A stretch of 64,000 nt of DNA, taken from an archaeon. GTDB lineage: Archaea > Iainarchaeota > Iainarchaeia > Iainarchaeales > 1-14-0-10-31-34. A model generated the notes under the pieces. The model was not told the origin of the DNA, made no database searches, and was given only the letters and a program-made list of their open reading frames with translations. Each line of letters starts with the position of its first letter. Positions within the stretch are counted from its first letter, which is position 1. Positions 1,184-47,574 of this stretch are shown here, one piece after another. Position numbers and translations under genes: made by a program. The DNA lies in contig JAJRVL010000004.1 in the NCBI GenBank assembly GCA_024277355.1, forward strand, positions 264,804 to 328,803. Direction: 5' to 3'.

Positions 1184-2062
1184 GTGAAAAAAATGACAAC
1201 TTATTCTGAAGCAGGAGTAAACATAGAAAAAGGAACTGAAACAGTCAAAAGAATAAAAAAACACGTTAAATCTACTTTTAATGAAAATGTATTGCTTGAT
1301 TCAGGTTTATTTGCAGGCGCAATAGACTTAAAAAAAATAAAAAAAATGAATAATCCTGTGTTGCTTTCAAGCATTGACGGAGTAGGAACCAAAACAGTTA
1401 TAGCAGAAAAAATGAATAAATGGGATTCAATTGGACAAGATTTAGTTAATCATTCAGTTAATGACATTTTATGCCATGGAGGAGAACCAATTGCTTTTTT
1501 AGATTATGTTGCTTCTTCTTCAATTAAACCTGAAATAATAGAAGAAATAGTTCAAGGAATGACAGTTGCATGCAAAGAAAATGGAGTTGCATTAATTGGC
1601 GGGGAAACAGCAGAAATGCCTGATGTATACCAAGAAAATGAAATAGACTTAGCAGGAACAATACTTGGAATAGTAGAAAAAGAAAAACTTATTACAGGAA
1701 AAAACATAAAAGAAAAAGATGTACTTATTGCATTGCCTTCAAATGGTTTGCATACAAACGGATATTCTCTTGCAAGAAAAGTAATAGAAAAAACAAAAAT
1801 AAGCCTGAAAGAACAGTTTGTAGTAGAAAAAGAAGATTTAACTATTGGAGGAGAACTCTTAAAAATCCATAAAAGTTATCTGAAAGAAGTAAGTTTTTTA
1901 TTAAAAAAATTTGAATTAAAAGGAATTTCTCATATTACCGGCGGAGGATTAATTGATAATTTGCCAAGAATTTTTCCTGAAGGAATTGGAGCAAAAATAA
2001 ATCCAAACAAAATTAAAATTCCATTTATTTTTGAATGGATTCAAGAAAATGGAGTTATTTAA
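1184..2062 (+). CDS. purM: phosphoribosylformylglycinamidine cyclo-ligase (AIR synthase, PurM). The ORF ends at an in-frame TAA, and the conserved PurM C-terminus continues in the same frame to 2242.
   Basis: Contains YSEAGVNI, DGVGTK and HSVNDILCHGGEP. After TAA at 2060-2062 the same frame reads EEEMFKTFNMGVGMVLIV..., which is the conserved PurM C-terminal block. It ends at TAA 2240-2242. Confidence 0.85.
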   Translation: MKKMTTYSEAGVNIEKGTETVKRIKKHVKSTFNENVLLDSGLFAGAIDLKKIKKMNNPVLLSSIDGVGTKTVIAEKMNKWDSIGQDLVNHSVNDILCHGGEPIAFLDYVASSSIKPEIIEEIVQGMTVACKENGVALIGGETAEMPDVYQENEIDLAGTILGIVEKEKLITGKNIKEKDVLIALPSNGLHTNGYSLARKVIEKTKISLKEQFVVEKEDLTIGGELLKIHKSYLKEVSFLLKKFELKGISHITGGGLIDNLPRIFPEGIGAKINPNKIKIPFIFEWIQENGVI

Positions 2063-2242
2063 GAAGAAGAAATGTTTAAGACATTTAACATGGGAGTTGG
2101 AATGGTTTTAATTGTATCAGAAAAAGATTCAGATAAAATTATTTCAGAACTAAAAAAACAATTTAATTCAAATGCAATTGTAATTGGAGAAACAATTAAA
2201 GGAAAAGGAATTCAATTAGAAAAACCTTTATTTAAAGAATAA
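2063..2242 (+). other. purM: in-frame continuation of purM downstream of the internal TAA (59 codons encoding the conserved PurM C-terminus)
   Basis: It is in the same frame as 1184..2062. Its motif EEMxxTFNMGVGMV matches E. coli PurM (REEMYRTFNCGVGMI). Confidence 0.6.
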
Positions 2243-2566: not shown

Positions 2567-4195
2567 ATGAATAAAAAAATAAGTTTAATTTTAGTGTTTT
2601 TTATTTTAATTGGAACAACAACTATTGCAGGAGGAATAATTCTGCCGCCTCCAGTAGACAATCCTTCTCTTATAGCTGAATGGTATCCTATCTGGGATCA
2701 AACTCCTGAAAGAGTAGGACCAGCAACCTTTATCTATTTTAAAGTTAAAACAACCTGCAATAATGGACCATGCGACAATGTAACTGCAACAATTCAGTGC
2801 TGTGAAGGAGACGGCTGTACTAACTATGTGGATATGCCTTATCCTTCAGGAAGCTGCGGCAATTCAGGAATTCTTCAGACATATACTGAAACAATACAAG
2901 ACCTTGGAAGTTTTAGTGGAGATAAATATCCTAAATGGACTCTTCACATAAATTTTCCTGGAGCACAAGGACACATATTTAATTTAAGAATAATTACAAA
3001 AGGATCATTTATTGACACTAATTATCTTTCAGGAATGCAATTAGAAATGGATAATTATCCAGGAATTACTTTAAATTCTCCTTCTACTTCTGAAACAACT
3101 GAAGTTTCAATTGGAGGGCAATTATCAATTAACTGGACAACAACAGATTTAGATAACGATAACATTCTTTCAAGAATTTATTATTATCCTGTAGGAAATC
3201 CTGGAAACACACAAATGATTTATCAAAGTCCATGGCAGGCTCCGGGAACGCATTCAACTAACTGGACTATTCCTGATGTTGACACAGGAAATTATTATTT
3301 ATATGTTAATGCAAATGACAATTATACAAGCACTAATTCAAAAAATGCAACAATAAATATAAATCCTGCTCCTTCAACTCTTTCAGCTTTAATTCTTTCT
3401 CCTTCTGACTTAAATAATTTTTTTATTGGTTCAACAATAAACTTTAAGTCAAATATTAAATGCGGAAATTCTCCTTGCACTGTTAAATGGGATTCAAATA
3501 AAGACTCAGAATGGTATTCAACAGATGAAAATTTTAGTTATTCAGGTTTAAGCATTGGAGACCATAATATTACTTTAACTGTAACTGATTCTATTTCTGA
3601 AACTGCAACTGATTCAGTTAACATAAAAATTAATCCAATTACAGCAGATGTTTTATCTATTTCAGATTTTGAAATAATTAAAGTTGAACCAAATAATAGG
3701 TTTGCAGTAAACGGAAAAATCAGAATAAAAGCAAAAGTAAATTATTACCAAAGCCAATCAATAAGCGGAAAAGCTTTCATAATAATAAGCGATTCAATTA
3801 CACACAAAGCAATTTATGGTCCTGAACCATTTTATTTCAGTTTTACTATTCCTTCATTTGAAGAATATGACTTAAACATTGATTTAAGCAATTATCCTTT
3901 TGTTGAAAGACAAAATTACAAAGTAGAATTTTTAGCTGTAAGCAATCAAGTTGAATCATCAGGAGAATATTTTGTTAATCCAGTTGATTCTGATAGTGCT
4001 TACTGGGATGACGGAGACAGTTATTATATTCCAGATGAACAAATCCCTGAACAAAACAAAGCAAACAATTCAGGTTACCAAATAATAGAATTAGGTCCTG
4101 CAAATTTAGGGGACATAAGCCAACTACCCGAAACAAATCCTGCAATTATTTTATTAATTTTATTTAGTGTGCTGATAATAATTAAAAAAAAATAA
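2567..4195 (+). CDS. secreted cell-surface protein (542 aa) with N-terminal signal or anchor and a C-terminal LPETN-hydrophobic-KKK sorting-signal-like tail
   Basis: N-terminal hydrophobic segment. Cys-rich, Asn/Thr-rich extracellular body. The C-terminus reads QLPETNPAIILLILFSVLIIIKKK. Confidence 0.6.
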   Translation: MNKKISLILVFFILIGTTTIAGGIILPPPVDNPSLIAEWYPIWDQTPERVGPATFIYFKVKTTCNNGPCDNVTATIQCCEGDGCTNYVDMPYPSGSCGNSGILQTYTETIQDLGSFSGDKYPKWTLHINFPGAQGHIFNLRIITKGSFIDTNYLSGMQLEMDNYPGITLNSPSTSETTEVSIGGQLSINWTTTDLDNDNILSRIYYYPVGNPGNTQMIYQSPWQAPGTHSTNWTIPDVDTGNYYLYVNANDNYTSTNSKNATININPAPSTLSALILSPSDLNNFFIGSTINFKSNIKCGNSPCTVKWDSNKDSEWYSTDENFSYSGLSIGDHNITLTVTDSISETATDSVNIKINPITADVLSISDFEIIKVEPNNRFAVNGKIRIKAKVNYYQSQSISGKAFIIISDSITHKAIYGPEPFYFSFTIPSFEEYDLNIDLSNYPFVERQNYKVEFLAVSNQVESSGEYFVNPVDSDSAYWDDGDSYYIPDEQIPEQNKANNSGYQIIELGPANLGDISQLPETNPAIILLILFSVLIIIKKK

Positions 4196-17764: not shown

Positions 17765-18325
17765 ATGCGCGGAAGAAATCCAGTCAGAAGAAATCAAGGA
17801 ACACATGCTTCAAAATTTCATGGACAAAAAAAGAAAACACCTTTTTTCAGAAAACTAGTGCAAAAAAAAGTTACAAAAGAAATAATGCAGAAAATTTACG
17901 GAATAGAAGCAAGAGAACAGCATTTAATTGAAAGAAGAGACGAAATACTTCATAAAACAAAAGGAATTCCTGCAATTTCAATTGGAAGATTTAGATTAAC
18001 TCCAAGTGCAAAAAACCCAAGAGAACACCAGCAAATATTATTTGAACTTCAGAATGGAGCAATGCCAAGAAAAATACTTCAGTTTTCTGAAATAAGAGAA
18101 TTAGCAAAAAGAAATCCAGTGCAATTTGGACAATTGTTTGATTTAGTTTACAAATATTTCACTGGAGAAATAACCAAAAAAGAAATAGATTCATTAACTA
18201 AATTTTTAAAGCATGCAATAGAAAAAGGAAAAACTACTGACCAAAAAATGGCAAGAGTAATTCAATTAAAAAAAAGAAGAGAAGAAGAAATAGATTTTAT
18301 CCAGTCTTATCACAAAGCAGCTTAA
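17765..18325 (+). CDS. hypothetical basic protein
   Basis: 186-aa ORF with an Arg/Lys-rich N-terminus. No recognised family. Confidence 0.4.
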   Translation: MRGRNPVRRNQGTHASKFHGQKKKTPFFRKLVQKKVTKEIMQKIYGIEAREQHLIERRDEILHKTKGIPAISIGRFRLTPSAKNPREHQQILFELQNGAMPRKILQFSEIRELAKRNPVQFGQLFDLVYKYFTGEITKKEIDSLTKFLKHAIEKGKTTDQKMARVIQLKKRREEEIDFIQSYHKAA

Positions 18326-19623
18326 GGATAACTTCTATTCAGTGTTCTAGGGAAAGGAATTGTATCTTTAATTGAATCTAATTTGCAAATCCATCTTAAT
18401 AATCTTTCAATACCGATTCCAAAACCTGAATGAGGAACACTTCCATATTTTCTTAAATCCAGATACCATTGATAGTTTTCCAAAGGAATTTTTTCTTTCT
18501 TTAATTTTTTAAGCATGTTTTCATTTATGTCTTCTCTTTGTCCGCCGGTACATAATTCTCCATAACCTTCAGGCCCTATTAAATCAAAACTATAACATTT
18601 TTTTGAGTCAGGCATTTCTTTTGCATAAAAAGCTTTTATTTTTGTAGGATAACCATAAATAAAAAAAGGAATTTTTTCATCCTGAGACAAAATTTTTTCT
18701 TCTTTAATGCTTAAATCAATTCCCCAAGGAATTTTCTTTTTGTATTTTTTTTCAAGTATTTCTAATGCTTCATCATAAGACATTTTTGCAAAAGGAGTTC
18801 TTATTGCCTTTAAGTCAGCTAAATCTCTTCCTAAAACTTTTAATTCTTCAGGGTTTTCTTCAGCTATTTTTTGACAAACAAAAGAAACCATTTTTTCTAT
18901 TTCATGCATTTGGTCATCCATGTTCATCCATGCACATTCTCCTTCTAAATGCCAGTATTCTGTTAAATGCCTTGCAGTTTTTGATTTTTCTGCCCTAAAA
19001 GAAGGAGTTAAACCAAAAACTTTTCCTAAAGCAAAAATCATTACTTCTAAATACATTTGTCCTGATTGAGAAAGATATCTTTCTTTACCAAAATATTTTA
19101 ATGGAAATAAAGTTGTTCCTCCTTCACAGGCATTAGGAGTAATCATTGCGGGACTGCATTCAAAATAATTTTCTTTTTTGTAAAATTCTCTTACAGCATA
19201 CATCAAAGTAGAACGGATTTTCATTATTGCCTGCATTTTACTGCTTCGCATCCATAAATGCCTTACATCCAATAAGAATTCTTCACTTAAATCTTTTTGT
19301 ATTGGAAAATTAATGCTTTCTCCTATTAATTTTAATTCTTCAGCCATTAATTCAAATCCAGAAGGAGCTCTTGAATCTTCCTTTAATTTTCCGGTTAATT
19401 CAACTGAAGCTTCAATGCTTTGTTTGCTTAATTTTTCAAATTCTTTTTTATCAATTTTTTCTGGTTCAATAATGCATTGAATTTCTCCTGTTTCATCTCT
19501 TAATAAAAGAAAAATTTTTTCTTTTAAATCTCTTTTTCTTTTAATCCATCCTCTGACTGAAACAAGTCCTTTTTTTTCAAAAGCTTTTTTTATTGAAATA
19601 AATTCTTTTTCCATTAATATCAC
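18322..19623 (-). CDS. asnS: asparaginyl-tRNA synthetase (class IIb, archaeal/eukaryotic type)
   Basis: N-terminal OB fold. Motif 2 FRAEKSKTARHLTEYWHLEGE, motif 3 GFGIGIERLLRW and the AsnRS-typical C-terminus IPFPRT. Confidence 0.8.
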   Translation of the reverse strand: MILMEKEFISIKKAFEKKGLVSVRGWIKRKRDLKEKIFLLLRDETGEIQCIIEPEKIDKKEFEKLSKQSIEASVELTGKLKEDSRAPSGFELMAEELKLIGESINFPIQKDLSEEFLLDVRHLWMRSSKMQAIMKIRSTLMYAVREFYKKENYFECSPAMITPNACEGGTTLFPLKYFGKERYLSQSGQMYLEVMIFALGKVFGLTPSFRAEKSKTARHLTEYWHLEGECAWMNMDDQMHEIEKMVSFVCQKIAEENPEELKVLGRDLADLKAIRTPFAKMSYDEALEILEKKYKKKIPWGIDLSIKEEKILSQDEKIPFFIYGYPTKIKAFYAKEMPDSKKCYSFDLIGPEGYGELCTGGQREDINENMLKKLKKEKIPLENYQWYLDLRKYGSVPHSGFGIGIERLLRWICKLDSIKDTIPFPRTLNRSYP

Positions 19624-19665: not shown

Positions 19666-19831
19666 CGCCCTAGAAAGGATTTGAACCTTTGACCTTCCGG
19701 TATCTGCTTTCACATAGGTGGAATAAGGCACGGCATAAAGCCGTGCTAGCGCTACTTTATGTAGCGCACACGCGTCAACCGAGTGAGCGGTTGTTTAACA
19801 GCCGGATGCTCTACCACTAAGCTACCAGAGC
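19666..19831 (-). tRNA. tRNA-Asn (anticodon GUU) with a 94-nt intron (19701..19794) after the anticodon loop
   Basis: Exon 1 is GCTCTGGTAGCTTAGTGGTAGAGCATCCGGCTGTTAA and exon 2 is CCGGAAGGTCAAAGGTTCAAATCCTTTCTAGGGCG. The anticodon stem TCCGG/CCGGA re-forms only after removal of the intervening GC-hairpin-rich segment. Confidence 0.8.
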
Positions 19832-21312: not shown

Positions 21313-22293
21313 TTATTTTTTTAATTTAATGTTTAATTCATCTAATTGTTTTTCTGAAACTTTACTTGGAGCTTCTTCTAATAAACCCATTGCATTTTTG
21401 TTTTTTGGAAAAGCAATTACTTCTCGAATTGAATTACTTTCAGTTAAAATCATTATTAATCTATCTAATCCAATTGCAAAACCTCCATGAGGAGGAGCAC
21501 CATACTGAAATGCTTCCAATAAAAAACCAAATTTTTGTTTTGCCTGCTTTTCATTTATTCCCAAAAAATCAAATATTTTTTGCTGGGTTTTAGGATTATG
21601 AATTCTAATTGATCCTGAACCTAATTCAGTTCCATTTAAAACTAAATCATAAGAACGGCTTCTGATTGATAATAAATCTTTTTTATTTTTTGATTCAAGT
21701 TTTTTTTCATCTTCTTTGTTAAACTGAGTAAAAGGATGATGACATGGAACAATTTCTTTTTCGTCATTTAATTCAAATAAAGGAAAATCCGTAACCCACA
21801 AAAAAGAATTCTTTAATTTTGTTTCTTTTCTTGTATCAGGTTTATCTGTTTTGTATTTTTCCATTGCTTTACTATAAGTTATTCTTGGAAAAGGAATTTT
21901 TAAGTCTTCATTTAATGCATTTTTAAAAACAAACTGCATTGTTTTTTCAAGCAAAGAATAAACATCTTCTTCTTCAACAAAACTCATTTCCAAATCCAAT
22001 TGAGTAAATTCAGGCTGCCTGTCTCCTCTTAAATCTTCATCCCTGAAACATCTTGCAATCTGAAAGTATTTGTCAAAACCTGAAACCATTAATAACTGCT
22101 TGTATAATTGAGGACTTTGAGGCAAAGCAAAAAAACTTCCATTAAATTTTCTGCTTGGAACTAAATAATCTCTTGCACCTTCAGGAGTGCTTTTAGATAA
22201 AATTGGAGTTTCAATTTCCAAAAAATCCTGCGAATCAAAAAAATCTCTCATTGATTTAATTATTTTATGTCTTAATAACAAATTATTAAACAT
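21313..22293 (-). CDS. aspS: aspartyl-tRNA synthetase catalytic domain (bacterial-type, no GAD insertion). This is the C-terminal part of a frameshifted gene.
   Basis: Contains [48 protein letters not shown] and AFPK. Confidence 0.8.
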
Positions 22294-22694
22294 TTTTTTC
22301 TTCTTAAATCTAAATACCTGTATTTTAATCTTGTATCTTCATTTGCTTTTACTTCATCTTCTATTGCAAAAGGAATTGGTTCAGCTGAATTTAATACTTC
22401 AATACTTTCAGCACTAACTTCAATTGTTCCTGTTTCAATTTTTGGATTAGAATCAGGTCTTTTTTTTACTGTTCCTTTAATTCTTAAAACAAATTCATTT
22501 AACAAAGAAGAAACTATTTCATCAGTTTTTTTGTCTTTTCTTGAAATAAAAATCTGAGTTAAACCAGTTTTATCCCTTAAATCAATAAAAGCAAATTTTT
22601 TTTGGGCACGAATTGAATTAATCCATCCTTCTAACACTACTTTTTTTCCTGTGTCTTTTTCTCTTAATTCACCGCAAAAATGAGTTCGATTCAT
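22272..22694 (-). CDS. aspS: aspartyl-tRNA synthetase N-terminal anticodon-binding OB-fold domain, in a different frame from the catalytic domain
   Basis: It ends ...[13 protein letters not shown], then runs into a spurious tail. The downstream ORF starts [19 protein letters not shown]. The join falls exactly at an A7/T7 homopolymer (plus-strand T run 22293-22299). With 8 rather than 7 bases the reading is the consensus [13 protein letters not shown]... Confidence 0.75.
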
Positions 22695-30837: not shown

Positions 30838-31431
30838 TTAAGCCAGACTAAAAGCCTTAATAATTCTCTGCAAAGCAGTTAAATTAGAAAGAACAGCAAA
30901 CAAAACCAAAAAATAAACTACATATTGAAAAGAAAAAATTCCACTCAAAAGAGTCAGGAATAAAATCAATAATCTTTCAGGTCTTTCAAGTAAACCGCCT
31001 TTTAATTCTTTTTCTAAAAACAATTTTTCTTTTGCAGCAGCCTTAGAATAAGTAGTCATCATTGTTCCAAATAAAGCCAATAAAATCCAGACTTTTGCTT
31101 CAACAAAAAAGAAAGGCAAAGAAACAAAAAACAACCCAAACAAAACAATAAAATCAGTATAACGGTCAGTTATTGTATCCAAATAAGCCCCTTTGTTTGA
31201 TGTTTTGCCTTGTACTCTTGCTACAGCACCATCAATTAAATCAACTAACGCCGTCAATACAAAAAAAATTAAAGCAAACAAAAAGTTTTCCTGCAATAAA
31301 AAATAAAAAGTTAAAACAGCAGGAATTAAAGCAGACAAAGTCCATTGATTAGGAGTAAAAGGCAATTTACCAAAAAGTAATCCTGCTTTAAGAGAAATAA
31401 AATTAAATTTTTCTCTGTTCTCTGAAATCAT
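30838..31431 (-). CDS. CDP-alcohol phosphatidyltransferase (archaetidylinositol-phosphate synthase-like)
   Basis: Signature DLIDGAVARVQGKTSNKGAYLDTITDRYTD, that is D-G-x2-A-R-x8-G-x3-D-x3-D. 197 aa, polytopic. Adjacent to the MIPS gene. Confidence 0.75.
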   Translation of the reverse strand: MISENREKFNFISLKAGLLFGKLPFTPNQWTLSALIPAVLTFYFLLQENFLFALIFFVLTALVDLIDGAVARVQGKTSNKGAYLDTITDRYTDFIVLFGLFFVSLPFFFVEAKVWILLALFGTMMTTYSKAAAKEKLFLEKELKGGLLERPERLLILFLTLLSGIFSFQYVVYFLVLFAVLSNLTALQRIIKAFSLA

Positions 31432-31433
31432 AA

Positions 31434-32537
31434 TTACCTGTCTCTTTTACCTTTAATAAATTCTTCAACCATTGTCTTGCAGACTGAATCAGAAAACTGA
31501 TGCAAAGGATGCTTCATAAAATAAGAAGAACAAGAAGTTAATTCTCCTCCAATTCCTCTGTCTCTTGCTAATTTTATAGCACGCAAAGCATCAATTGTTA
31601 TTCCTGCTGAATTAGGTGAATCCATTACACTTAATCTCATTTCTAATTCCAAAGGAATATCCCCAAATTTTCTTCCTTCCATTCTAATAAAACAAACTTT
31701 ATTGTCTTTCTGCCATGGAACATAATCACTTGGACCAATATGAATATTATCTGCATCTAATTTCTGAGGCAGTTGAGATTGAACTGATTCAGTCTTGGAA
31801 ATTTTTTTGCTTTTCAGCCTTTTTCTTTCAAGCATATTCAAAAAATCTGTATTTCCTCCAGTGTTTAACTGATAAGTTCTGTCTAATTTTACTCCTCTGT
31901 CAGAAAACAATTTAGTTAAAACTCTATGAGTAATTGTTGCTCCAACCTGACTTTTAATGTCATCTCCAACAATAGGAAGTCCTTTATCTCTAAATTTTTT
32001 TTCCCATTCAGGATTAGAAGCAATAAAAACAGGCATACAATTAACCATTCCTACTCCTGCATCCAAACAAGCCTGAGCATAATATTTTGTTGCTTCTTCA
32101 GAACCAACAGGCATAAAATTAATTAAAACATCAGCTTTAACTTCCTTTAAAACTTTTACAACATCAACTGCATTTTCATCTGAAACAACAAATCTTTTGC
32201 TTTCATCATAATTTTCCATATGCGAAGCAAAACCATCTAATACAGGGCCTTTTTGTACAATCACATTTTGTTCCGGAACATCTTTCTGGAAAACTGTAGT
32301 ACAATTAGGTTTTTCAAAAATTGCCTGACTTAAATCTTTTCCAACTTTTCTTTTATCAATATCAAATGCCGCAACAAACTTAATGTCTTTAATTGAATAA
32401 CCTGCAAACACATTATGCATTAAACCAGGAATTAATTCATCTGAATTCTTAACTGAATTATAATAATAAACTCCCTGAACTAAAGAACTCGCACAGTTCC
32501 CCACTCCTGAAATTGCAACTCTGATTTCTTTTTCCAT
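31434..32537 (-). CDS. myo-inositol-1-phosphate synthase
   Basis: NAD-binding [14 protein letters not shown] and the conserved C-terminal MIPS blocks. 367 aa. Confidence 0.8.
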
Positions 32538-33405: not shown

Positions 33406-36201
33406 ATGAAAATAAAAATATTGATTATACTTATTTTTAGTTTAATTATATTAAGTAATTTATCCTGGGGAAACACAACAATTTGGGTTCCCTCTGAAGA
33501 AGATACATATCATTTTAATCAAATAATACTTGCAGGAGAAGACTTTAATTTATACTTAAAACAAAATTTTTATCACTCAGACCCAAGCGACGCATATTCT
33601 TGGGGAGGCTATTCAAACGGAAACTGGAATATTAATACTGATTGTAGCGGAGGAGAAGACGCAAATTTATTTAGAGCTCCACCAGAAGCAGGATGCACCT
33701 TAAAAGAATATACTGCAACAAACAATTATCTATTCCAAGCAGGCAAGCCAGAAGAAAGCACCCATGAAACTATAATGACATTAAATTGTGCGCCTGGAAA
33801 TTACACTATTCCAACCAAATACAGTTTAAAATATTTAACAAGAGATTATTGCAGCAACTATAATCTTAGCGAACCAACATTTACATTTAGAGTATTACCT
33901 GCAATAAATATGCCTCCATTTTATGATTATAATTTATTCTGGTCTAAATCCGGAACAACAAAAAGACAGTATATTCATGCACAAGATATAAACGAACAAT
34001 CAGATGGAAATTATTTTATTAAAAGCTTTGAAGTAAAAGTTGCAGATGAATGCACAATTATCGACGGAGGAGCAAAAGATAAAACAAAACAAAACGAGAT
34101 TGGAAGCTTGCAGATAACAACTTATTCAAACCAGCATTCAAAGTTTACAGTACCTTACGGCATAACAACAAGTTTTCAGGATGGATTAAATAGTTATAAT
34201 GACACAGACGATACAGGATATATAGGAATAAGAAACGGAGTTAATGATAATGGAAGCAGCACAACAACTACTTATGCAAACATGCATTATTCTTTTCCAA
34301 TTCATGCCGGATTAATATTCAAAAACATTTTTGGAGAACAAGCAAACCAAATTAAACTTAATTCAGATATTATTTCAGCATTTTTAGTTCTTGATATAAA
34401 TAACGCAACTGATGGCTATGGAGATTTTAATTTAGCTTTATATCCTGTAACAGACCCAAATGGAAACGGACTGCCTGACTTTGATCATACAGCTTTAGAT
34501 AAATGGAATAATAGAAAAACAAGTGTTCCATGGAACACTCCTGGAGGAGATTATTCAACAGCAAATTCTGCATTTCAATTTATTCCGCAAGGAAGTGACG
34601 GAACTAAATTTACATTTAATGTAACTCAAGCAGTACAGCAATGGACTGACTTAAACAATAATCAAGGATGGATAATGAAATTAGTTTCTAAAGTACCTGA
34701 TATAAATTATGGATATAATTTAAGAATTAATACTTCAGAAAACGCTATTATTAATGACAGACCAAAACTAATAATTACATGGTGGAATCCTTCAATTCCA
34801 TTAAATCCCGATTTAAATAATTTAAATTTATATGTTGATGTTCAATGCAGTCAAAGAGGCTTCAGGGACTTTAATGTAAGCATAACAGACTTTGATGATA
34901 ATTCAATTGACTTAAATACTTCAATTTTAGATTTAAATGCTTATAGAACAGATGCAGGAGATTTTAATGCAAACAATGGTCCTCCAGGAGTAAATTTAGA
35001 AGGAAGCCCCTATTTTGCAGGAAGCTTTGGAATAGTTAAAGTAAATGCTTACGGAGTAATAGATTATGAAACAGACACAAATCATTTTATTGTTGATGGA
35101 ACTCCAAACTGGAAAATATGCACGCCAAGCGAAGGAATCTCTTGTTTTTTGCCTGACGGAGGCGATAAAAACTGTTATTTTGTTGACTCTATTCAAGGAA
35201 ATGACACTAACACAATTTACACCGAAGATTATAATTCAATTTTAGGAGGAGAAACAGCAGGAGGAGTAATTCAAAAAATTCACGAAGAAAAATTTGTTAT
35301 CTGCAGTACTCCAGGCCCAAGAAAAATAATTTATTATCTTAGTTCTTCTGCCGACTCAAAAACATATTTAGATATAGCAGACATTTATTTTTTAGATATT
35401 AAATCTGAATTAAAAAACCCTTATTATGCAATAGCAGATTATAATACTCAAATAAATGGTTTAGGAATAGATAATGATTCTATAGTAAACATCCAGGAAT
35501 CAGTTTGGTATGCTTATGATGAAGACTGCGGACCAAAAGGAAGCATAAATACTTGGGAATTAGATAATCAAACAACAGTCTTTCTTCCTCCTGATTCAAA
35601 TGGTTCAGATACAAATACAACAGGAACAATTAACTGCACTACAACAGGAAAAAAAGCAATTAATTTAGTAGTAATTGCAGATAAAGAATTTTATTCAGGA
35701 TCAGGATTAAATATTTACATAAGAGGAGACACTTTTGTTAATGTAATAATTCCTGATTCATTAAGAATGGAATCATTTGAAATAGCACCATCAAAAGTCA
35801 AAAAAGGAAACACCACAGAATTCATAGTAGTAGTTAAAAGCAAAGTAGAAGGAATGGACTTAAATATTGAAGTTGTATTTGATGTATTTGATGAAACAGG
35901 AGTTTTTATTGAATCAATTACAGTTCCAGGAATGGCTTTAGCTCAAGGGCAAACACAAATTAAAACTACTTATAATACTTCAGCATTAAACGAAAAAACT
36001 TCTTACAGAGTAACTGCAAAAGCATTTCTTTTATCAGGCTCTGGGCCAATACAAGACAAACAGCCAATAAATGACTTAGAAGAAAGATATTTCTGGGTAT
36101 TAGAAGAAAACAATAAACTTGAAACTCTGCCTGAAACAAATTATCTTTCAATAATAATATTATTAATTTCAGTAACTTTAATTCTAACAAAAAAAGATTA
36201 A
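33406..36201 (+). CDS. giant secreted cell-surface protein (931 aa) with signal peptide and a C-terminal LPETN-hydrophobic-KKD tail
   Basis: N-terminal hydrophobic signal with WGNTT. Asn/Thr/Gly/Asp-rich beta-rich body with many N-x-T/S sequons. The C-terminus reads ETLPETNYLSIIILLISVTLILTKKD. Confidence 0.6.
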   Translation: MKIKILIILIFSLIILSNLSWGNTTIWVPSEEDTYHFNQIILAGEDFNLYLKQNFYHSDPSDAYSWGGYSNGNWNINTDCSGGEDANLFRAPPEAGCTLKEYTATNNYLFQAGKPEESTHETIMTLNCAPGNYTIPTKYSLKYLTRDYCSNYNLSEPTFTFRVLPAINMPPFYDYNLFWSKSGTTKRQYIHAQDINEQSDGNYFIKSFEVKVADECTIIDGGAKDKTKQNEIGSLQITTYSNQHSKFTVPYGITTSFQDGLNSYNDTDDTGYIGIRNGVNDNGSSTTTTYANMHYSFPIHAGLIFKNIFGEQANQIKLNSDIISAFLVLDINNATDGYGDFNLALYPVTDPNGNGLPDFDHTALDKWNNRKTSVPWNTPGGDYSTANSAFQFIPQGSDGTKFTFNVTQAVQQWTDLNNNQGWIMKLVSKVPDINYGYNLRINTSENAIINDRPKLIITWWNPSIPLNPDLNNLNLYVDVQCSQRGFRDFNVSITDFDDNSIDLNTSILDLNAYRTDAGDFNANNGPPGVNLEGSPYFAGSFGIVKVNAYGVIDYETDTNHFIVDGTPNWKICTPSEGISCFLPDGGDKNCYFVDSIQGNDTNTIYTEDYNSILGGETAGGVIQKIHEEKFVICSTPGPRKIIYYLSSSADSKTYLDIADIYFLDIKSELKNPYYAIADYNTQINGLGIDNDSIVNIQESVWYAYDEDCGPKGSINTWELDNQTTVFLPPDSNGSDTNTTGTINCTTTGKKAINLVVIADKEFYSGSGLNIYIRGDTFVNVIIPDSLRMESFEIAPSKVKKGNTTEFIVVVKSKVEGMDLNIEVVFDVFDETGVFIESITVPGMALAQGQTQIKTTYNTSALNEKTSYRVTAKAFLLSGSGPIQDKQPINDLEERYFWVLEENNKLETLPETNYLSIIILLISVTLILTKKD

Positions 36202-36202
36202 T

Positions 36203-36760
36203 ATGAAAAAAGAATACAGAAGACAATTTTTACATTTCTTTTTCGGAAGCACCATAATAATCTTAATTGGATTAATTGGAACAAAAAATTTTATTGCATT
36301 TAATTTACTAATTTTAATTACAGGTTATATTTTAGCACTAAAAATAAAAAAAGGACTAAAACTTCCAATAATAAAAGAATTCATTGATTATACAGAAAGA
36401 GAAACAGAAAAAGAACTCCCGGGAAAAGGCGCAATAACTTTTTTTATAGGAACATTAATTACATCAGTTTTATTTTACAACAATATTTTCATAGTTATTG
36501 GAGGAGTTATTACCTTAGTTTTTGGAGACAGCATTTCAAATATTGCAGGAAAAACAATAGGCAAAATAAAAATACAAGACAAAACATTAGAAGGAAGTTT
36601 TGCAGGAATAATAATTTCATTTATTTATTTATCAATTTTATTTCCTTTTTCCACTGCATTAATTGCAGCAGTAATCGGAATGACAATGGAATACCTTCCA
36701 ATAGAAGACAATTACACTATTCCAATTGCAACAGGAACAATATTAATGCTTTTAATTTAA
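36203..36760 (+). CDS. CTP-transferase family 1 membrane protein (CDP-archaeol synthase CarS-like / dolichol kinase-like)
   Basis: 185 aa, 5 TM. The C-terminal block FGDSISNIAGKTIGKIKI...KTLEGSFAGIIIS matches the CdsA/CarS/dolichol-kinase signature FGDSxAxxxGxxxGKxK...KTxEGSxAG. Its start is 2 nt after the stop of the giant surface protein gene. Confidence 0.5.
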   Translation: MKKEYRRQFLHFFFGSTIIILIGLIGTKNFIAFNLLILITGYILALKIKKGLKLPIIKEFIDYTERETEKELPGKGAITFFIGTLITSVLFYNNIFIVIGGVITLVFGDSISNIAGKTIGKIKIQDKTLEGSFAGIIISFIYLSILFPFSTALIAAVIGMTMEYLPIEDNYTIPIATGTILMLLI

Positions 36761-36797: not shown

Positions 36798-37193
36798 ATG
36801 AATTCAATTAAAACAATTTTAGTTTTTCTAATTTTAGCAGTAATTTTTTCAGGATGTGTGCAGACAAACACAACAACAAACCAAAATAATTCAGACACTA
36901 CAAATAAATCAATGCAAAAAGAAATGAATGAAATGATGAACGAAATGCATGGATTTAATATAAAAGAAATAGCAAAACATAATTCAGAAAAAGACTGCTG
37001 GCTGTTAATTAATGGAAAAGTTTATGATGTAACCGGCTTTGAAGAAACTCACAGCGGAGGAAAAGCAATTCTTGAAGGATGCGGAAAAGATGCAACAGCA
37101 TTATTTGAATCAAGACCAATGGGTTCAGGAACACCTCATTCAGACAACGCAAGAGAATTACTTTCAGAATTTTATATTGGAAACTTAAATTAA
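36798..37193 (+). CDS. lipoprotein with cytochrome b5-like heme-binding domain
   Basis: Lipobox-like VIFSGC. C-terminal NSEKDCWLLINGKVYDVTGFEETHSGGKAIL...ATALFE matches the cyt-b5 fold with the HPGG-type heme ligand motif (THSGG here). Confidence 0.65.
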   Translation: MNSIKTILVFLILAVIFSGCVQTNTTTNQNNSDTTNKSMQKEMNEMMNEMHGFNIKEIAKHNSEKDCWLLINGKVYDVTGFEETHSGGKAILEGCGKDATALFESRPMGSGTPHSDNARELLSEFYIGNLN

Positions 37194-37898
37194 ATATTTC
37201 AAATAAACAAAATAAGCCAAAACAAAATACAATAAAATTAAAAAATAACCAATTAAAGCCCCTAAACCAGAAAAATTCTTTTTTTTTCTTTCAATAATAA
37301 ACCAGTAAAGTTCTCCAGTCAAAGCAAAAAAAGAAACAATTAACAAAAAATAACCGGCTAAATTCATTAAAGCAAAAGGATTAACCAGCAAAAAATGTCC
37401 AATTAAAGCCCAAAAAGAAAAATAAACTAATCTTTGAATTTTTTTCCAGTTAACGCCTAATTTTGCTACAGCAAAATCAGTTGAAATTAAACTTAACAAA
37501 ACTAAAATTCCTAAAGAAAAATACCCAAAAATTAAAGGATTAAAAAAAGGATTAAAAGAATAAAAAATCAAAGAAATATCAAAATTAAAAATAATATTTA
37601 AGACCAGCAAAAAATGAATTAATCCAAATAAAGTTCCTGTAACCCCTAAACTTCTTCTTACAGTCCAATATTTCAATAAAGCAGGTTTAAACTTGAAAAC
37701 AGAACTTGAAAGTAAAGACAAAGCAATAAAAGTTGCTCCACTAAAAGCAAAACTTCGAATTAAAGCATAATTAAATGAAGTAAAAGAAATAAAATAAAAC
37801 TGATAAAAAAATTCAGTTAACCAAAACAAAACCGAAACAAAAACAAAAATTAAAACAAACTTCCAGTTCCTTATTGTGCCTTCAAACAATTTAACCAT
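37185..37898 (-). CDS. polytopic membrane protein resembling the ferric-reductase-like / MsrQ-type heme b-binding transmembrane domain
   Basis: 237 aa, about 6 TM. Conserved His in TM helices (GLIHFLLVL, LIGHFLLV). Convergent tail overlap with the cyt b5-like gene. Confidence 0.4.
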   Translation of the reverse strand: MVKLFEGTIRNWKFVLIFVFVSVLFWLTEFFYQFYFISFTSFNYALIRSFAFSGATFIALSLLSSSVFKFKPALLKYWTVRRSLGVTGTLFGLIHFLLVLNIIFNFDISLIFYSFNPFFNPLIFGYFSLGILVLLSLISTDFAVAKLGVNWKKIQRLVYFSFWALIGHFLLVNPFALMNLAGYFLLIVSFFALTGELYWFIIERKKKNFSGLGALIGYFLILLYFVLAYFVYLKYLI

Positions 37899-40360: not shown

Positions 40361-41155
40361 TCATTCCTTAAAATACAACAAAGGATTTAACACCATTGAA
40401 TAAGTTGCTAAAACCGCAGTAATAATTCTTAATACAGCAAAAACAATTAAAGCTAAAATGCTTATTAATTCAGTTTCAGCAAAAGAAACAATAAAAGCAG
40501 AAATTAAACTTAAAATCAAAGCAATAAAAGTCCCAAAAGATGCTTCTTTAATATTTTTAAAAGACTTTTTTACTGCATTAAAAACAGAACTTAAACCTTT
40601 TTTTTCTATTGCTGCAACAGGATAAATAAAATAAAACAAAACTGTAACAATAAAAACTGCAATTAAAATAACTAAACCTGAAAGAACAGAAAAAAACAAG
40701 TTATTCTGAACAAAAGAAAAAGAAAAAAAAGTTATAAAAGGAACAAGAATAATCATTGAAAGAATAAAAGCAAAAAGCACTGGAACAACAATTTTAGTGA
40801 AATTTTTTAGTACTTCTTTAATTGAAACTGAAACTGAAATACTTTTTTTATTTAAATAATTTTGTATCATTAAAGGATAAGCTGAATTAATAACTGAATC
40901 AAACACAAAAAAAATAAAAGACAAAACAAGCAAAAAAACTGCTTCAGGAAAAATTTTATTTAACAAAAAAGTTTTTTCTTCTAAAGAAGAAAGCAAATTA
41001 ATTACCTGCATTTTTTTTAATAAATTCATAGCAAATAAAAGCATTAAACCCCAGACTAATGCAAGGAAAATTTTAGGAAAAAAAAGTTTTGGTTGTTTTT
41101 TTAAAACAATAAATGAATTTTTTAAAACTTCAATTAAAGAACTCATTTTAATCAA
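40361..41155 (-). CDS. hypothetical polytopic membrane protein
   Basis: 264 aa, 6-7 TM, no motifs. 8-nt overlap with the downstream MBL ribonuclease gene. Confidence 0.4.
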   Translation of the reverse strand: MIKMSSLIEVLKNSFIVLKKQPKLFFPKIFLALVWGLMLLFAMNLLKKMQVINLLSSLEEKTFLLNKIFPEAVFLLVLSFIFFVFDSVINSAYPLMIQNYLNKKSISVSVSIKEVLKNFTKIVVPVLFAFILSMIILVPFITFFSFSFVQNNLFFSVLSGLVILIAVFIVTVLFYFIYPVAAIEKKGLSSVFNAVKKSFKNIKEASFGTFIALILSLISAFIVSFAETELISILALIVFAVLRIITAVLATYSMVLNPLLYFKE

Positions 41156-45928: not shown

Positions 45929-46783
45929 ATGCATATTCCTGATGGATTTTTATCAATTGAAATTTCACTTTTATTCTGGATAATTTCTTTTATTGTTGTT
46001 TCATTTTCTTTTAAAAAATTAAAAAAGAATTCAAAAAAAATTATTTTATTTGGTTTAGCAGGAGCAGTAATTTTTCTTGCACAAATGTTTAATTTTCCTG
46101 TTTTAGGAGGCACATCAGGACATTTAATTTTAGGAGGACTGCTTGCATTACTTTTAGGATTTGATTCAGCAGTAATCATAATGGCTTCAGTTTTGTTTAT
46201 TCAGTCAGCAGTATTCCATGACGGCGGAATTTTTTCATTAGGGGCAAATGTTTTCAATATGGCGATTATTTCTCCTTTTGCTGCAGTAAAAACAAAACAA
46301 TTAATAAAAAATAATTTTTCTGTTTTAATTGCAGGAATACTTTCAGTTTTAACTGCTGTATTTCTTGTTTCATTGCAGTTGTTTTTTTCAGGAACAACAG
46401 AATTAATGCCTGTATTAAATTCAATGCTTTTAGTTCATTTAGTAATTGGATTAATTGAAGGAATTTTTTCTTTTTGTGTTTATTATATTTTAATTAACAA
46501 AAATATTTCATTAAAAATTAATCCAAAAAAAATAATTCTTGCTTCAATAATTATTGGATTAATTATTGTGCCTTTTGCTTCTGCTCTGCCTGATGGATTA
46601 GAAAAAACAGCAGAAAAACTTGAATTTAATGAACTTGCATTAAATTCAATGACTCCAATAACAGTAATGGCAGACTATTTGTTTCCAGGAATAGAAAATG
46701 AATTAATTGCAGTTTCTTTAGCCGGCTTTTTTGGTTCAGTAATAGTTTTTTCATTAATTTTTATTTTAATGAAACCAAAATGA
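45929..46783 (+). CDS. cbiM: ECF/cobalt transporter substrate component CbiM with C-terminal PDGLE domain
   Basis: The invariant N-terminus MHIPDGFL. 6-7 TM. C-terminal ALPDGLEKTAEKLEF (PDGLE motif). Confidence 0.8.
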   Translation: MHIPDGFLSIEISLLFWIISFIVVSFSFKKLKKNSKKIILFGLAGAVIFLAQMFNFPVLGGTSGHLILGGLLALLLGFDSAVIIMASVLFIQSAVFHDGGIFSLGANVFNMAIISPFAAVKTKQLIKNNFSVLIAGILSVLTAVFLVSLQLFFSGTTELMPVLNSMLLVHLVIGLIEGIFSFCVYYILINKNISLKINPKKIILASIIIGLIIVPFASALPDGLEKTAEKLEFNELALNSMTPITVMADYLFPGIENELIAVSLAGFFGSVIVFSLIFILMKPK

Positions 46784-47574
46784 TTTTTTATATGCAAAAA
46801 AACAAAACAATACTACTCTTATTTCTTTTAATTTTTTTATCTGCATGCATACAAAATAATAATTCATTTAACTGCGAAAACGGAAAAACTTATTTTGTTT
46901 CAAGAATAATAGATGGAGATACAATTGAAGCAGAAAACAAAAAAATAAGATTAAATGGAATTAATACTCCTGAAAAAAAAGAAGCCTGTTTTAATAAAGC
47001 AAAAGAATTCTTAGAAAAAGAAATTTTAGAAAAAAAAGTTTTAATTAAAGAAAAAGGAACAGACAAATACGGAAGAATTATAGGAAGTGTTTGTGTTAAC
47101 GGAAAATCAGTAAACAAAGAATTAATTAAACAAGGCTTAGCCCATTATGCTTTTACTGAATCAGAAGAATTAAAAAAAATACAGGAAAAAGCAATAAAAG
47201 AAAACAAAGGATGCTTATGGAAAAAAGGAACAGACAAATACATTCAGGAAAAATGCATTAAATTAAAAAAACTTGAATTTAATCAGAAAAACTTTAACGG
47301 AGAGTTTGTTGAATTTTCAAATGACTGCAATTATTCAATTGACTTAAATGGATTTTATTTAAAAGATGAAGCAACACACTTGTATTTTTTTCCTGCAATA
47401 GAACTGAAAGGAAAATCTTTTGTAAGAGTTTTCTCTGAAAAAGGAATTAATTCAGGAAACGAATTATATTGGGGAAAAGGAAACATCTGGAATAATGATT
47501 CAGACCAGTTATTTTTAAGAAATGAAAAAGGATTTTTAATTGTTTATTTTGAATACAACAATACTTTAAATTAA
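46780..47574 (+). CDS. secreted lipoprotein nuclease: staphylococcal-nuclease (SNase) domain fused to a C-terminal lamin-tail-like domain
   Basis: Lipobox FLSAC. SNase blocks VSRIIDGDTIE...RLNGINTPE...DKYGRIIGSV...GKSVNKELIKQGLA. C-terminal roughly 100-aa beta-domain FVEFSNDCNYSIDLNGFYLKDE...FFP...SFVRVFSEKG matches lamin-tail domain patterns. Confidence 0.65.
   Translation: MIFYMQKNKTILLLFLLIFLSACIQNNNSFNCENGKTYFVSRIIDGDTIEAENKKIRLNGINTPEKKEACFNKAKEFLEKEILEKKVLIKEKGTDKYGRIIGSVCVNGKSVNKELIKQGLAHYAFTESEELKKIQEKAIKENKGCLWKKGTDKYIQEKCIKLKKLEFNQKNFNGEFVEFSNDCNYSIDLNGFYLKDEATHLYFFPAIELKGKSFVRVFSEKGINSGNELYWGKGNIWNNDSDQLFLRNEKGFLIVYFEYNNTLN

Follow-up and report, generated by a model that had tools for sequence, protein, structure and literature searches.

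How is a secreted protein held at the surface of an archaeal cell when its C terminus reads like a Gram-positive cell-wall sorting signal? The question is raised by a 64,000-nucleotide stretch of contig JAJRVL010000004.1 (assembly GCA_024277355.1, positions 264,804 to 328,803; hereafter the window) from a DPANN archaeon of the Iainarchaeales, in which two secreted proteins end in the same pentapeptide, LPETN, followed by a hydrophobic segment and a short basic cluster. LPETG is the substrate of Staphylococcus aureus sortase A (SrtA), and sortase B (SrtB) substrates end in asparagine (NPQTN); the original prediction, made from the DNA of the window, took the tail for an LPXTG/sortase-type signal. 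We show here that the tail is shared by unrelated surface proteins and carries a signature of its own, and we propose, at a probability of roughly 0.65, that it is a lineage-specific sorting domain of a DPANN clade, most likely processed by an archaeosortase and serving to anchor surface proteins to lipid.

Two Secreted Proteins with One Tail

The first protein, of 542 residues, is a secreted surface protein encoded at 2567..4195 (+) and comprises a signal peptide, four β-sandwich (Ig/PKD/CARDB-like) domains, a linker and the putative sorting tail. Its Sec-type signal peptide spans approximately residues 1-23 (MNKKISLILVFFILIGTTTIAGG; 2567..2635, +), with a hydrophobic segment from residue 3, a helix over residues 5-18 in the AlphaFold model, a predicted cleavage site and an M-N-K-K N terminus that is invariant across all orthologues. 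The protein ends in ...GDISQLPETNPAIILLILFSVLIIIKKK (also given as ...QLPETNPAIILLILFSVLIIIKKK) and then stop, positions 4100..4195 being the final 32 codons of its open reading frame (ORF). Here the signature L-P-E-T-N (residues 520-524; 4124..4138, +), with P521 and E522 invariant, leads into a hydrophobic transmembrane stretch of 15 residues, PAIILLILFSVLIII (4139..4183, +; helix predicted for residues 525-541), and from there into the basic cluster and stop at 4184..4195 (+; KKK 4184..4192, stop 4193..4195). The second, also a secreted surface protein, has 931 residues (ORF 33406..36201, +), begins like the first with an N-terminal hydrophobic, signal-peptide-like segment and ends in ...NKLETLPETNYLSIIILLISVTLILTKKD (also given as ...TLPETNYLSIIILLISVTLILTKKD) before its stop codon; its L-P-E-T-N occupies residues 908-912 (36127..36141, +; DNA pattern match 36130..36192), and the tail sequence and an alignment register described below place a hydrophobic transmembrane stretch of 16 residues, YLSIIILLISVTLILT, at 36142..36189 (+) and the basic cluster KK(D) with the stop at 36190..36201 (+).

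The match between the two tails is real and far beyond chance. Among the window's called proteins (18,175 residues) LPETN occurs twice against 0.013 occurrences expected, both copies lying 23-24 residues from the C terminus, and a DNA pattern of P-E-[TI]-[NH], helix and K/R finds exactly these two sites in the window, where shuffles lead one to expect 0.01. BLASTP detects no similarity between the two proteins (best E 0.92), and their shared tail is therefore not a matter of paralogy, which confirms the initial observation of one tripartite C-terminal tail on two unrelated secreted proteins. No other protein of the window has both a signal peptide and a C-terminal anchor, and a local hidden Markov model (HMM) of the tail detects no further copy there.

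An AlphaFold model of the 542-residue protein, built on a 10-sequence alignment (mean predicted local distance difference test score, pLDDT, of 71), contains four β domains whose structure matches are generic multi-Ig proteins; the protein's sequence gives weak PKD/Big domain matches. Residues 513-524, with the motif among them, are disordered in the model and run straight into the helix of residues 525-541.

A Signature Distinct from LPXTG

Orthologues of the 542-residue protein share 47-67% identity and those of the 931-residue protein 36-57%, and across them the linker ahead of the motif varies freely while the P-E pair and the helix length stay fixed. Tails of the first family read LPETN, APEIN, APEIH, APETH, FPETN, MPEIN or MPETR, and in the family alignment only the Pro, the Glu and one Lys of the tail are invariant; tails of the second read LPETN and, once, LNEIN. 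We placed 21 tails, from orthologues and from the other families described below, in a common register: positions 2 and 3 are P and E in 21 of 21 each, position 1 is L in 12, A in 5, F in 2 and M in 2, position 4 is T in 16 and I in 5, and the last position is N in 16, H in 3, D in one and R in one. A hydrophobic run of fixed length begins 1-3 residues past the motif, with I or V at offset 8 in every tail and K or R at offset 21 in 19 of the 21. The domain consists of the signature, directly followed by a membrane helix of 15-16 residues and two to four Lys/Arg, at the end of Sec-exported, multi-Ig-domain surface proteins. As read from these alignments, the family signature is [LAFM]-P-E-[TI]-[NH] and not LPXTG, because its "X" is fixed while the would-be scissile Thr varies.

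A profile of the tail, compared with 1.84 billion representative proteins, found 15 matches at E < 0.001, all ending 0-5 residues from the C terminus, and brought in a third carrier family, a 939-residue protein (P0028) that ends in ...NLPETNHIFILLVLFVVLFVVRKK and is unrelated to the window proteins. At the DNA level we searched 596 Gb of sequence, one genome per species for 185,579 species (the window's own genome is not among them), with a degenerate pattern of L-P-E-T-N, six helix codons whose second base is T, and K/R, which had been checked on the window and the related loci. The 13 matches fall into six in-frame C-terminal tails and seven instances of out-of-frame noise, the latter in six bacterial or unclassified-bacterial records and one labeled Euryarchaeota (L017). 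All six in-frame tails end long ORFs in archaea deposited as Candidatus Micrarchaeota, Candidatus Diapherotrites or "archaeon," and two of them add carrier families, a 257-residue protein (locus L023) and a 798-residue protein (locus L022, in a genome of 50% G+C). With their tails removed, the five carrier families have no pairwise similarity (best E 0.10), and the genomes that carry them are DPANN only. The local tail HMM sets true tails well apart, at 18-50 bits against at most 8 bits for everything else in ~400 kb of fetched loci. A metagenome scan with the 542-residue family returned only seven loci, which share one gene context and contain no enzyme, and scans of viral contigs with the enzyme and the tail pattern found nothing.

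At two of these loci, from distant genomes, the stop codon of the gene for the large LPETN-tailed protein overlaps the start codon of the next gene, which encodes a protein of 210-220 residues (L022:5083-5745 and L025:5900-6532) with a signal peptide at its N terminus and a helix at its C terminus; the two followers are weakly similar to each other (E 3e-4) and may represent a conserved partner.

An Archaeosortase-Family Gene in a Close Relative

That the processing enzyme is not encoded in the window, as had been stated at the outset, is borne out by both motif and membrane-protein scans. Window proteins contain no TLxTC-type motif; neither the 64-kb window nor the gene tables of related loci include a sortase (PF04203), a rhomboid or a CPBP gene; and a scan of all window membrane proteins of unknown function yielded no enzyme candidate. 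Those with a single N-terminal helix are an SGNH esterase, a DUF1616 fragment, a cytochrome b5 lipoprotein and a nuclease, and the polytopic ones are transporters, lipid enzymes or Cys-free proteins of unknown function. The loci around orthologues share the gene order of the window and likewise hold no enzyme candidate.

A candidate is found in a close relative. Locus L023 (archaeon isolate MEGAHIT-group-1.353, contig JBDRFE010000073.1) encodes the 257-residue, LPETNH-tailed protein and, at L023:1511-2005, a polytopic exosortase/archaeosortase-family protein of 164 residues (P0031), the two genes lying 3.8 kb apart in the order sppA, carS, archaeosortase, secD, secF, NOG1 GTPase, tail gene. 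The 164-residue protein scores 48.8 bits against TIGR04178 (cut-off 23; E 6e-13) and 32.9 bits against PF09721 (gathering score 25.7), a match that is also precomputed for it, and it bears the NCBI name "archaeosortase/exosortase family protein." Its single cysteine, Cys70 (NPSCTG), together with Arg112 (NLLRIY) and His132 (LMHEIS), would be the catalytic residues. Against the subfamily models it scores 33.4 bits for ArtE (cut-off 95), 30 for heimosortase (130), 29.7 for ArtD (125), 28.1 for paceosortase (80) and 20.7 for ArtA (75).

The same protein is present in GCA_043824355.1, an assembly that also contains P0003, a full-length orthologue of the window's 542-residue protein with the tail APEINP...; GCA_043824355.1 and GCA_043819075.1 are near-identical assemblies of one species, and both have tails and the archaeosortase-family gene. 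The JBDRFE01 contigs carry L023 and L025, and the locus-tag prefix ABH986 is common to P0023 (ABH986_05525), a 575-residue orthologue of the 542-residue protein that is the same as P0003, and to P0032 (ABH986_06720), the LPETNY-tailed 903-residue protein of L025. This genome thus combines one archaeosortase-family gene with at least three tail proteins of three unrelated families, in both APEIN and LPETN variants. It is as close to the window as the window's other relatives, with PurM 71% and RpiA 78% identical and the gene order the same.

Relation to Known Sorting Systems

Searches of Pfam and NCBIfam with the full proteins and their tails, at E values up to 10, returned no match to LPXTG, PGF-CTERM, PEF-CTERM, PEP-CTERM or VPXXXP-CTERM, and PF00746 did not match the tails. 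Fifteen tails scanned singly gave only sub-threshold matches, to Loki-CTERM, Heimdall-CTERM, JDVT-CTERM, GG_III-CTERM and LPXTG_anchor, in alignments that cover the helix and the basic part and skip the signature positions; TIGR01167 reached 13.6 bits at best (cut-off 15.9), with tail residues 10-32 laid on profile positions 11-34, that is, on the helix only. The domain measures 23-26 residues, close to the 26-28 positions of the archaeal CTERM models and short of the 34 of LPXTG_anchor. It had been claimed from the outset that the tail lacks the architecture of archaeosortase signals: its motif letters are indeed new, with no PGF-, PEF- or VPXXXP-CTERM match, but the architecture is the same.

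Among the closest known systems is the PGF-CTERM/ArtA system of Haloferax volcanii, where an archaeal tail of motif, helix and basic cluster likewise ends exported surface proteins (Sec or Tat glycoproteins in Haloferax) and where the enzyme bears the same family signature, TIGR04178, as the relative's 164-residue protein. ArtA, a polytopic transpeptidase with Cys, Arg and His that belongs to the exosortase/archaeosortase family, leaves its substrate lipid-anchored, and enzyme-dependent helix removal and lipid attachment have been demonstrated only for ArtA in Haloferax (PMC6098224). The systems differ in motif (P-E-[TI]-[NH] here, P-G-F there), in lineage (DPANN rather than Euryarchaeota) and in the enzyme, which in the relative has only 164 residues and stays far below the ArtA cut-off; the system described here is also known from sequence alone. 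The bacterial PEP-CTERM/exosortase and methanogen PEF-CTERM/archaeosortase C systems share with our tail a motif that opens with an invariant Pro-Glu and abuts the helix, followed by a basic cluster, and in them one enzyme serves many unrelated substrates per genome (PMC6098224, PMC9723798). Their third and fourth motif residues are P or F rather than the T/I and N/H found here, and the relative's enzyme falls below all subfamily cut-offs.

With LPXTG/sortase A and NPQTN/sortase B the tail shares the tripartite design and, in its commonest pentapeptide, a look of LPETG or NPQTN. It differs in its fixed E and variable T and N, the missing spacer between motif and helix, the shorter domain and the failure of TIGR01167 and PF00746, and the relative's enzyme belongs to a family unrelated to sortase; to our knowledge, no wall acceptor has been described in these archaea. 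A likeness in kind is also offered by archaeal systems that are lineage-specific and known solely from NCBIfam models, namely pacearchaeosortase (NF033505), heimdallarchaeosortase (NF045528) with Heimdall-CTERM, and Loki-CTERM, which pair small archaeosortases with short, clade-restricted C-terminal signals and belong to uncultured archaea, DPANN among them. The tails match Loki-CTERM and Heimdall-CTERM weakly in the helix part and not at the signature positions (at most 16.7 against cut-offs of 19.9-24), and the paceosortase and heimosortase models match the enzyme equally below their cut-offs (28.1 vs. 80 and 30 vs. 130). In the literature searched we found nothing relevant on "LPETN," no paper on this signal or an associated enzyme, none linking sortase to DPANN phyla, and no mention of paceosortase, heimosortase or Loki-CTERM.

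The kind of system is well known, and NCBIfam already models one DPANN archaeosortase, pacearchaeosortase. What appears new, judging from profile scores, is a signal outside the current Pfam and NCBIfam models and an enzyme outside every named archaeosortase subfamily; if the tail belongs to the exosortase/archaeosortase class, it would be a new signal type.

Proposed Processing and Competing Explanations

In the reading that we favor, that of an archaeosortase-processed sorting domain, the tripartite design and the P-E core match exosortase/archaeosortase substrates such as PEP-CTERM and PEF-CTERM and not sortase substrates. By analogy with ArtA and PGF-CTERM, the protein would be exported through Sec and held transiently in the membrane by its C-terminal helix, the Lys cluster lying on the cytoplasmic side; a small polytopic cysteine transpeptidase of the archaeosortase family would recognize the P-E motif at the outer face of the membrane, cut off the helix and move the new C terminus onto a membrane lipid, leaving the protein lipid-anchored at the cell surface. 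The 164-residue protein would be this enzyme, the source genome would encode it as well, and cleavage and lipidation would take place as in Haloferax.

Several observations weigh against this proposal. No existing CTERM model recognizes the motif, the 164-residue enzyme stays below the cut-off of every named archaeosortase subfamily, and the link between enzyme and signal consists of one species (two near-identical assemblies) and gene proximity. Moreover, the one LNEIN tail, in orthologue P0019, lacks the Pro, and two paralogues (P0011 and that of locus L008) have degenerate motifs, so that processing may not be universal. The latter two belong to the 542-residue family (P0011 on the source contig outside the window; L008:1238-2362) and have decayed motifs (LSEIEV, ASETK) while keeping the C-terminal helix and basic cluster, with a longer cytoplasmic tail; their sequences suggest that they are possibly unprocessed, permanently helix-anchored versions.

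These same variants favor the explanation that survives best among the alternatives, a plain and permanent C-terminal membrane anchor in which P-E-T-N is an uncleaved juxtamembrane element that, for example, caps the helix or touches lipid or S-layer. Helix anchors at the C terminus are a common feature of surface proteins in archaea, and no enzyme was found within the window. Yet an identical pentapeptide, a fixed helix length and a basic cluster on five unrelated families are the hallmark of enzyme-recognized sorting domains, and an archaeosortase-family gene co-occurs with the tail at a distance of 3.8 kb, a proximity that we estimate to be expected for ~1% of tail genes (at about one such gene per ~1-Mb genome). 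We consider a plain anchor unlikely.

Less probable still is that the tail is processed by another membrane protease (a rhombosortase, a glutamic protease of the CPBP/myxosortase type or an undescribed enzyme) and that the archaeosortase serves a different signal. Several C-terminal signals do use non-exosortase enzymes (10.1101/2023.06.07.544157; PMC6219818), and the pairing of enzyme and signal rests on one species; but the tail has neither the Cys that myxosortase-type processing needs nor the Gly/Ser-rich motif of GlyGly-CTERM, a P-E core set directly against the helix, as here, is what exosortase/archaeosortase substrates typically have, and the window and related loci are free of rhomboid and CPBP genes. 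We give a similarly low chance to a source genome devoid of archaeosortase, whose tail would be handled by a sortase-fold transpeptidase in a wall-less DPANN cell or by an undescribed membrane protease, the LPXTG look then reflecting mechanistic convergence on cleavage after Thr/Ile. Finally, a true sortase-type signal, cleaved after the Thr of LPETN and linked to a wall or lipid acceptor, as originally predicted, is highly improbable: the resemblance to LPETG and to the N-ending NPQTN and the weak, sub-threshold TIGR01167 matches of two tails speak for it, but the Glu never varies, unlike the free X of LPXTG, Thr gives way to Ile in 5 of 21 tails, Asn to His, Asp or Arg and Leu to Ala, Phe or Met, the motif touches the helix and in the helix-only TIGR01167 alignment comes to lie ~7 positions too near it, neither PF00746 nor, in the window and related gene tables, any sortase-like or PF04203 protein was found, and the tail-bearing relative has an archaeosortase.

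Neighboring Genes and Other Features of the Window

Two polytopic proteins of the window were considered as sorting enzymes. An eight-helix protein of 264 residues (40361..41155, -), which has no Cys or His and no family match, was rejected; it is conserved in relatives (259-266 residues) between NMD3-like and β-CASP nuclease genes (L010:16336-17115, L011:10890-11690), its start overlapping the upstream gene. A 185-residue membrane protein (36203..36760, +) lacks Cys, and nothing in Pfam, NCBIfam or the PDB matches it; hhalign against CarS yields the "KTxEG" motif only, and a single-sequence AlphaFold model is too poor to use (pLDDT 47).

In all genomes examined, the latter protein, of 185-186 residues and polytopic, starts 2-35 nt past the stop codon of the giant gene with the LPETN tail (window 36203..36760, +; L010:12879-13439, L011:7499-8059, L012:7838-8398, L013:4825-5385, L019:2070-2630). 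Across genomes whose giant proteins share only 36-42% identity, it retains 67-68%. It contains a "GDS...GK..GK...KTLEGS" stretch reminiscent of cytidylyltransferase and polyprenol-kinase families.

On the other side of the giant gene, genes for myo-inositol-1-phosphate synthase and archaetidylinositol-phosphate synthase (30838..32537, -) are conserved divergently upstream (L010, L011, L012), in relatives with a PadR-like gene in between; locus L001 has a second copy of the inositol-lipid genes near its 542-family gene, and an intein (PF14890 and LAGLIDADG) is present in the inositol-1-phosphate synthase of L011 and L012. Glycosylphosphatidylinositol-like anchoring, which these neighbors brought to mind, was rejected: the basic cluster is cytoplasmic, there is no spacer, and the lipid genes are transcribed divergently behind the PadR gene.

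The window has a G+C content of 27.8%, an intron-containing tRNA, FtsZ and, by synteny, fibrillarin/Nop5-type neighbors, features that mark its origin as archaeal. A 166-nt tRNA match at 19666..19831 (-) was found by Rfam and not by ARAGORN, and thus points to a tRNA gene with a long intron of ~90 nt. In purM (aminoimidazole ribonucleotide synthase; 1184..2236, +), an in-frame TAA at 2060..2062 stands where orthologues have Gln or Leu (...ENGVI*EEEMF vs. ...KGNIQEKEML in an orthologue), with homology continuing in the same frame for another 58 codons; it could be a nonsense mutation marking a pseudogene, a sequencing error or a site of read-through. A gene resembling class II aspartyl-tRNA synthetase (21313..22694, -) is broken up, its N-terminal OB-fold part (22272..22694) and its catalytic part (21313..22293) occupying overlapping ORFs that are read in different frames. 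This layout suggests a frameshift. A second ORF resembling aspartyl- or asparaginyl-tRNA synthetase lies at 18322..19623.

Two further pairings concern exported proteins. A lipobox-type secreted cytochrome b5 domain protein (36798..37193, +) adjoins a six-helix MsrQ/ferric-reductase-like membrane protein (37185..37898, -), and together they would amount to extracytoplasmic heme electron transfer, unexpected for a small DPANN genome. A secreted staphylococcal-type nuclease with a lipobox-like LSAC is fused to a lamin-tail domain (46780..47574, +), a domain combination that fits the scavenging of external DNA.

Concluding Remarks

An LPXTG look-alike in a single genome can be an accident of the variant that this genome uses: where the window proteins have LPETN, relatives have APEIN, APEIH and MPETR. 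The finding is of use in drawing up an inventory of surface proteins for a DPANN clade and does not amount to the cross-domain surprise first suggested, that of a sortase system in an archaeon. The handle [LAFM]-P-E-[TI]-[NH], followed by a helix and K/R, allows the anchored surface proteome of one such clade to be listed, and a minimal archaeosortase of 164 residues outside the named subfamilies is its probable anchoring enzyme. DPANN archaea are tiny and mostly host-attached, and their large surface proteins are likely contact machinery; if the proposed processing is true, archaeosortase-type lipid anchoring would extend to this DPANN clade and a new signal/enzyme pair would join the catalogue.

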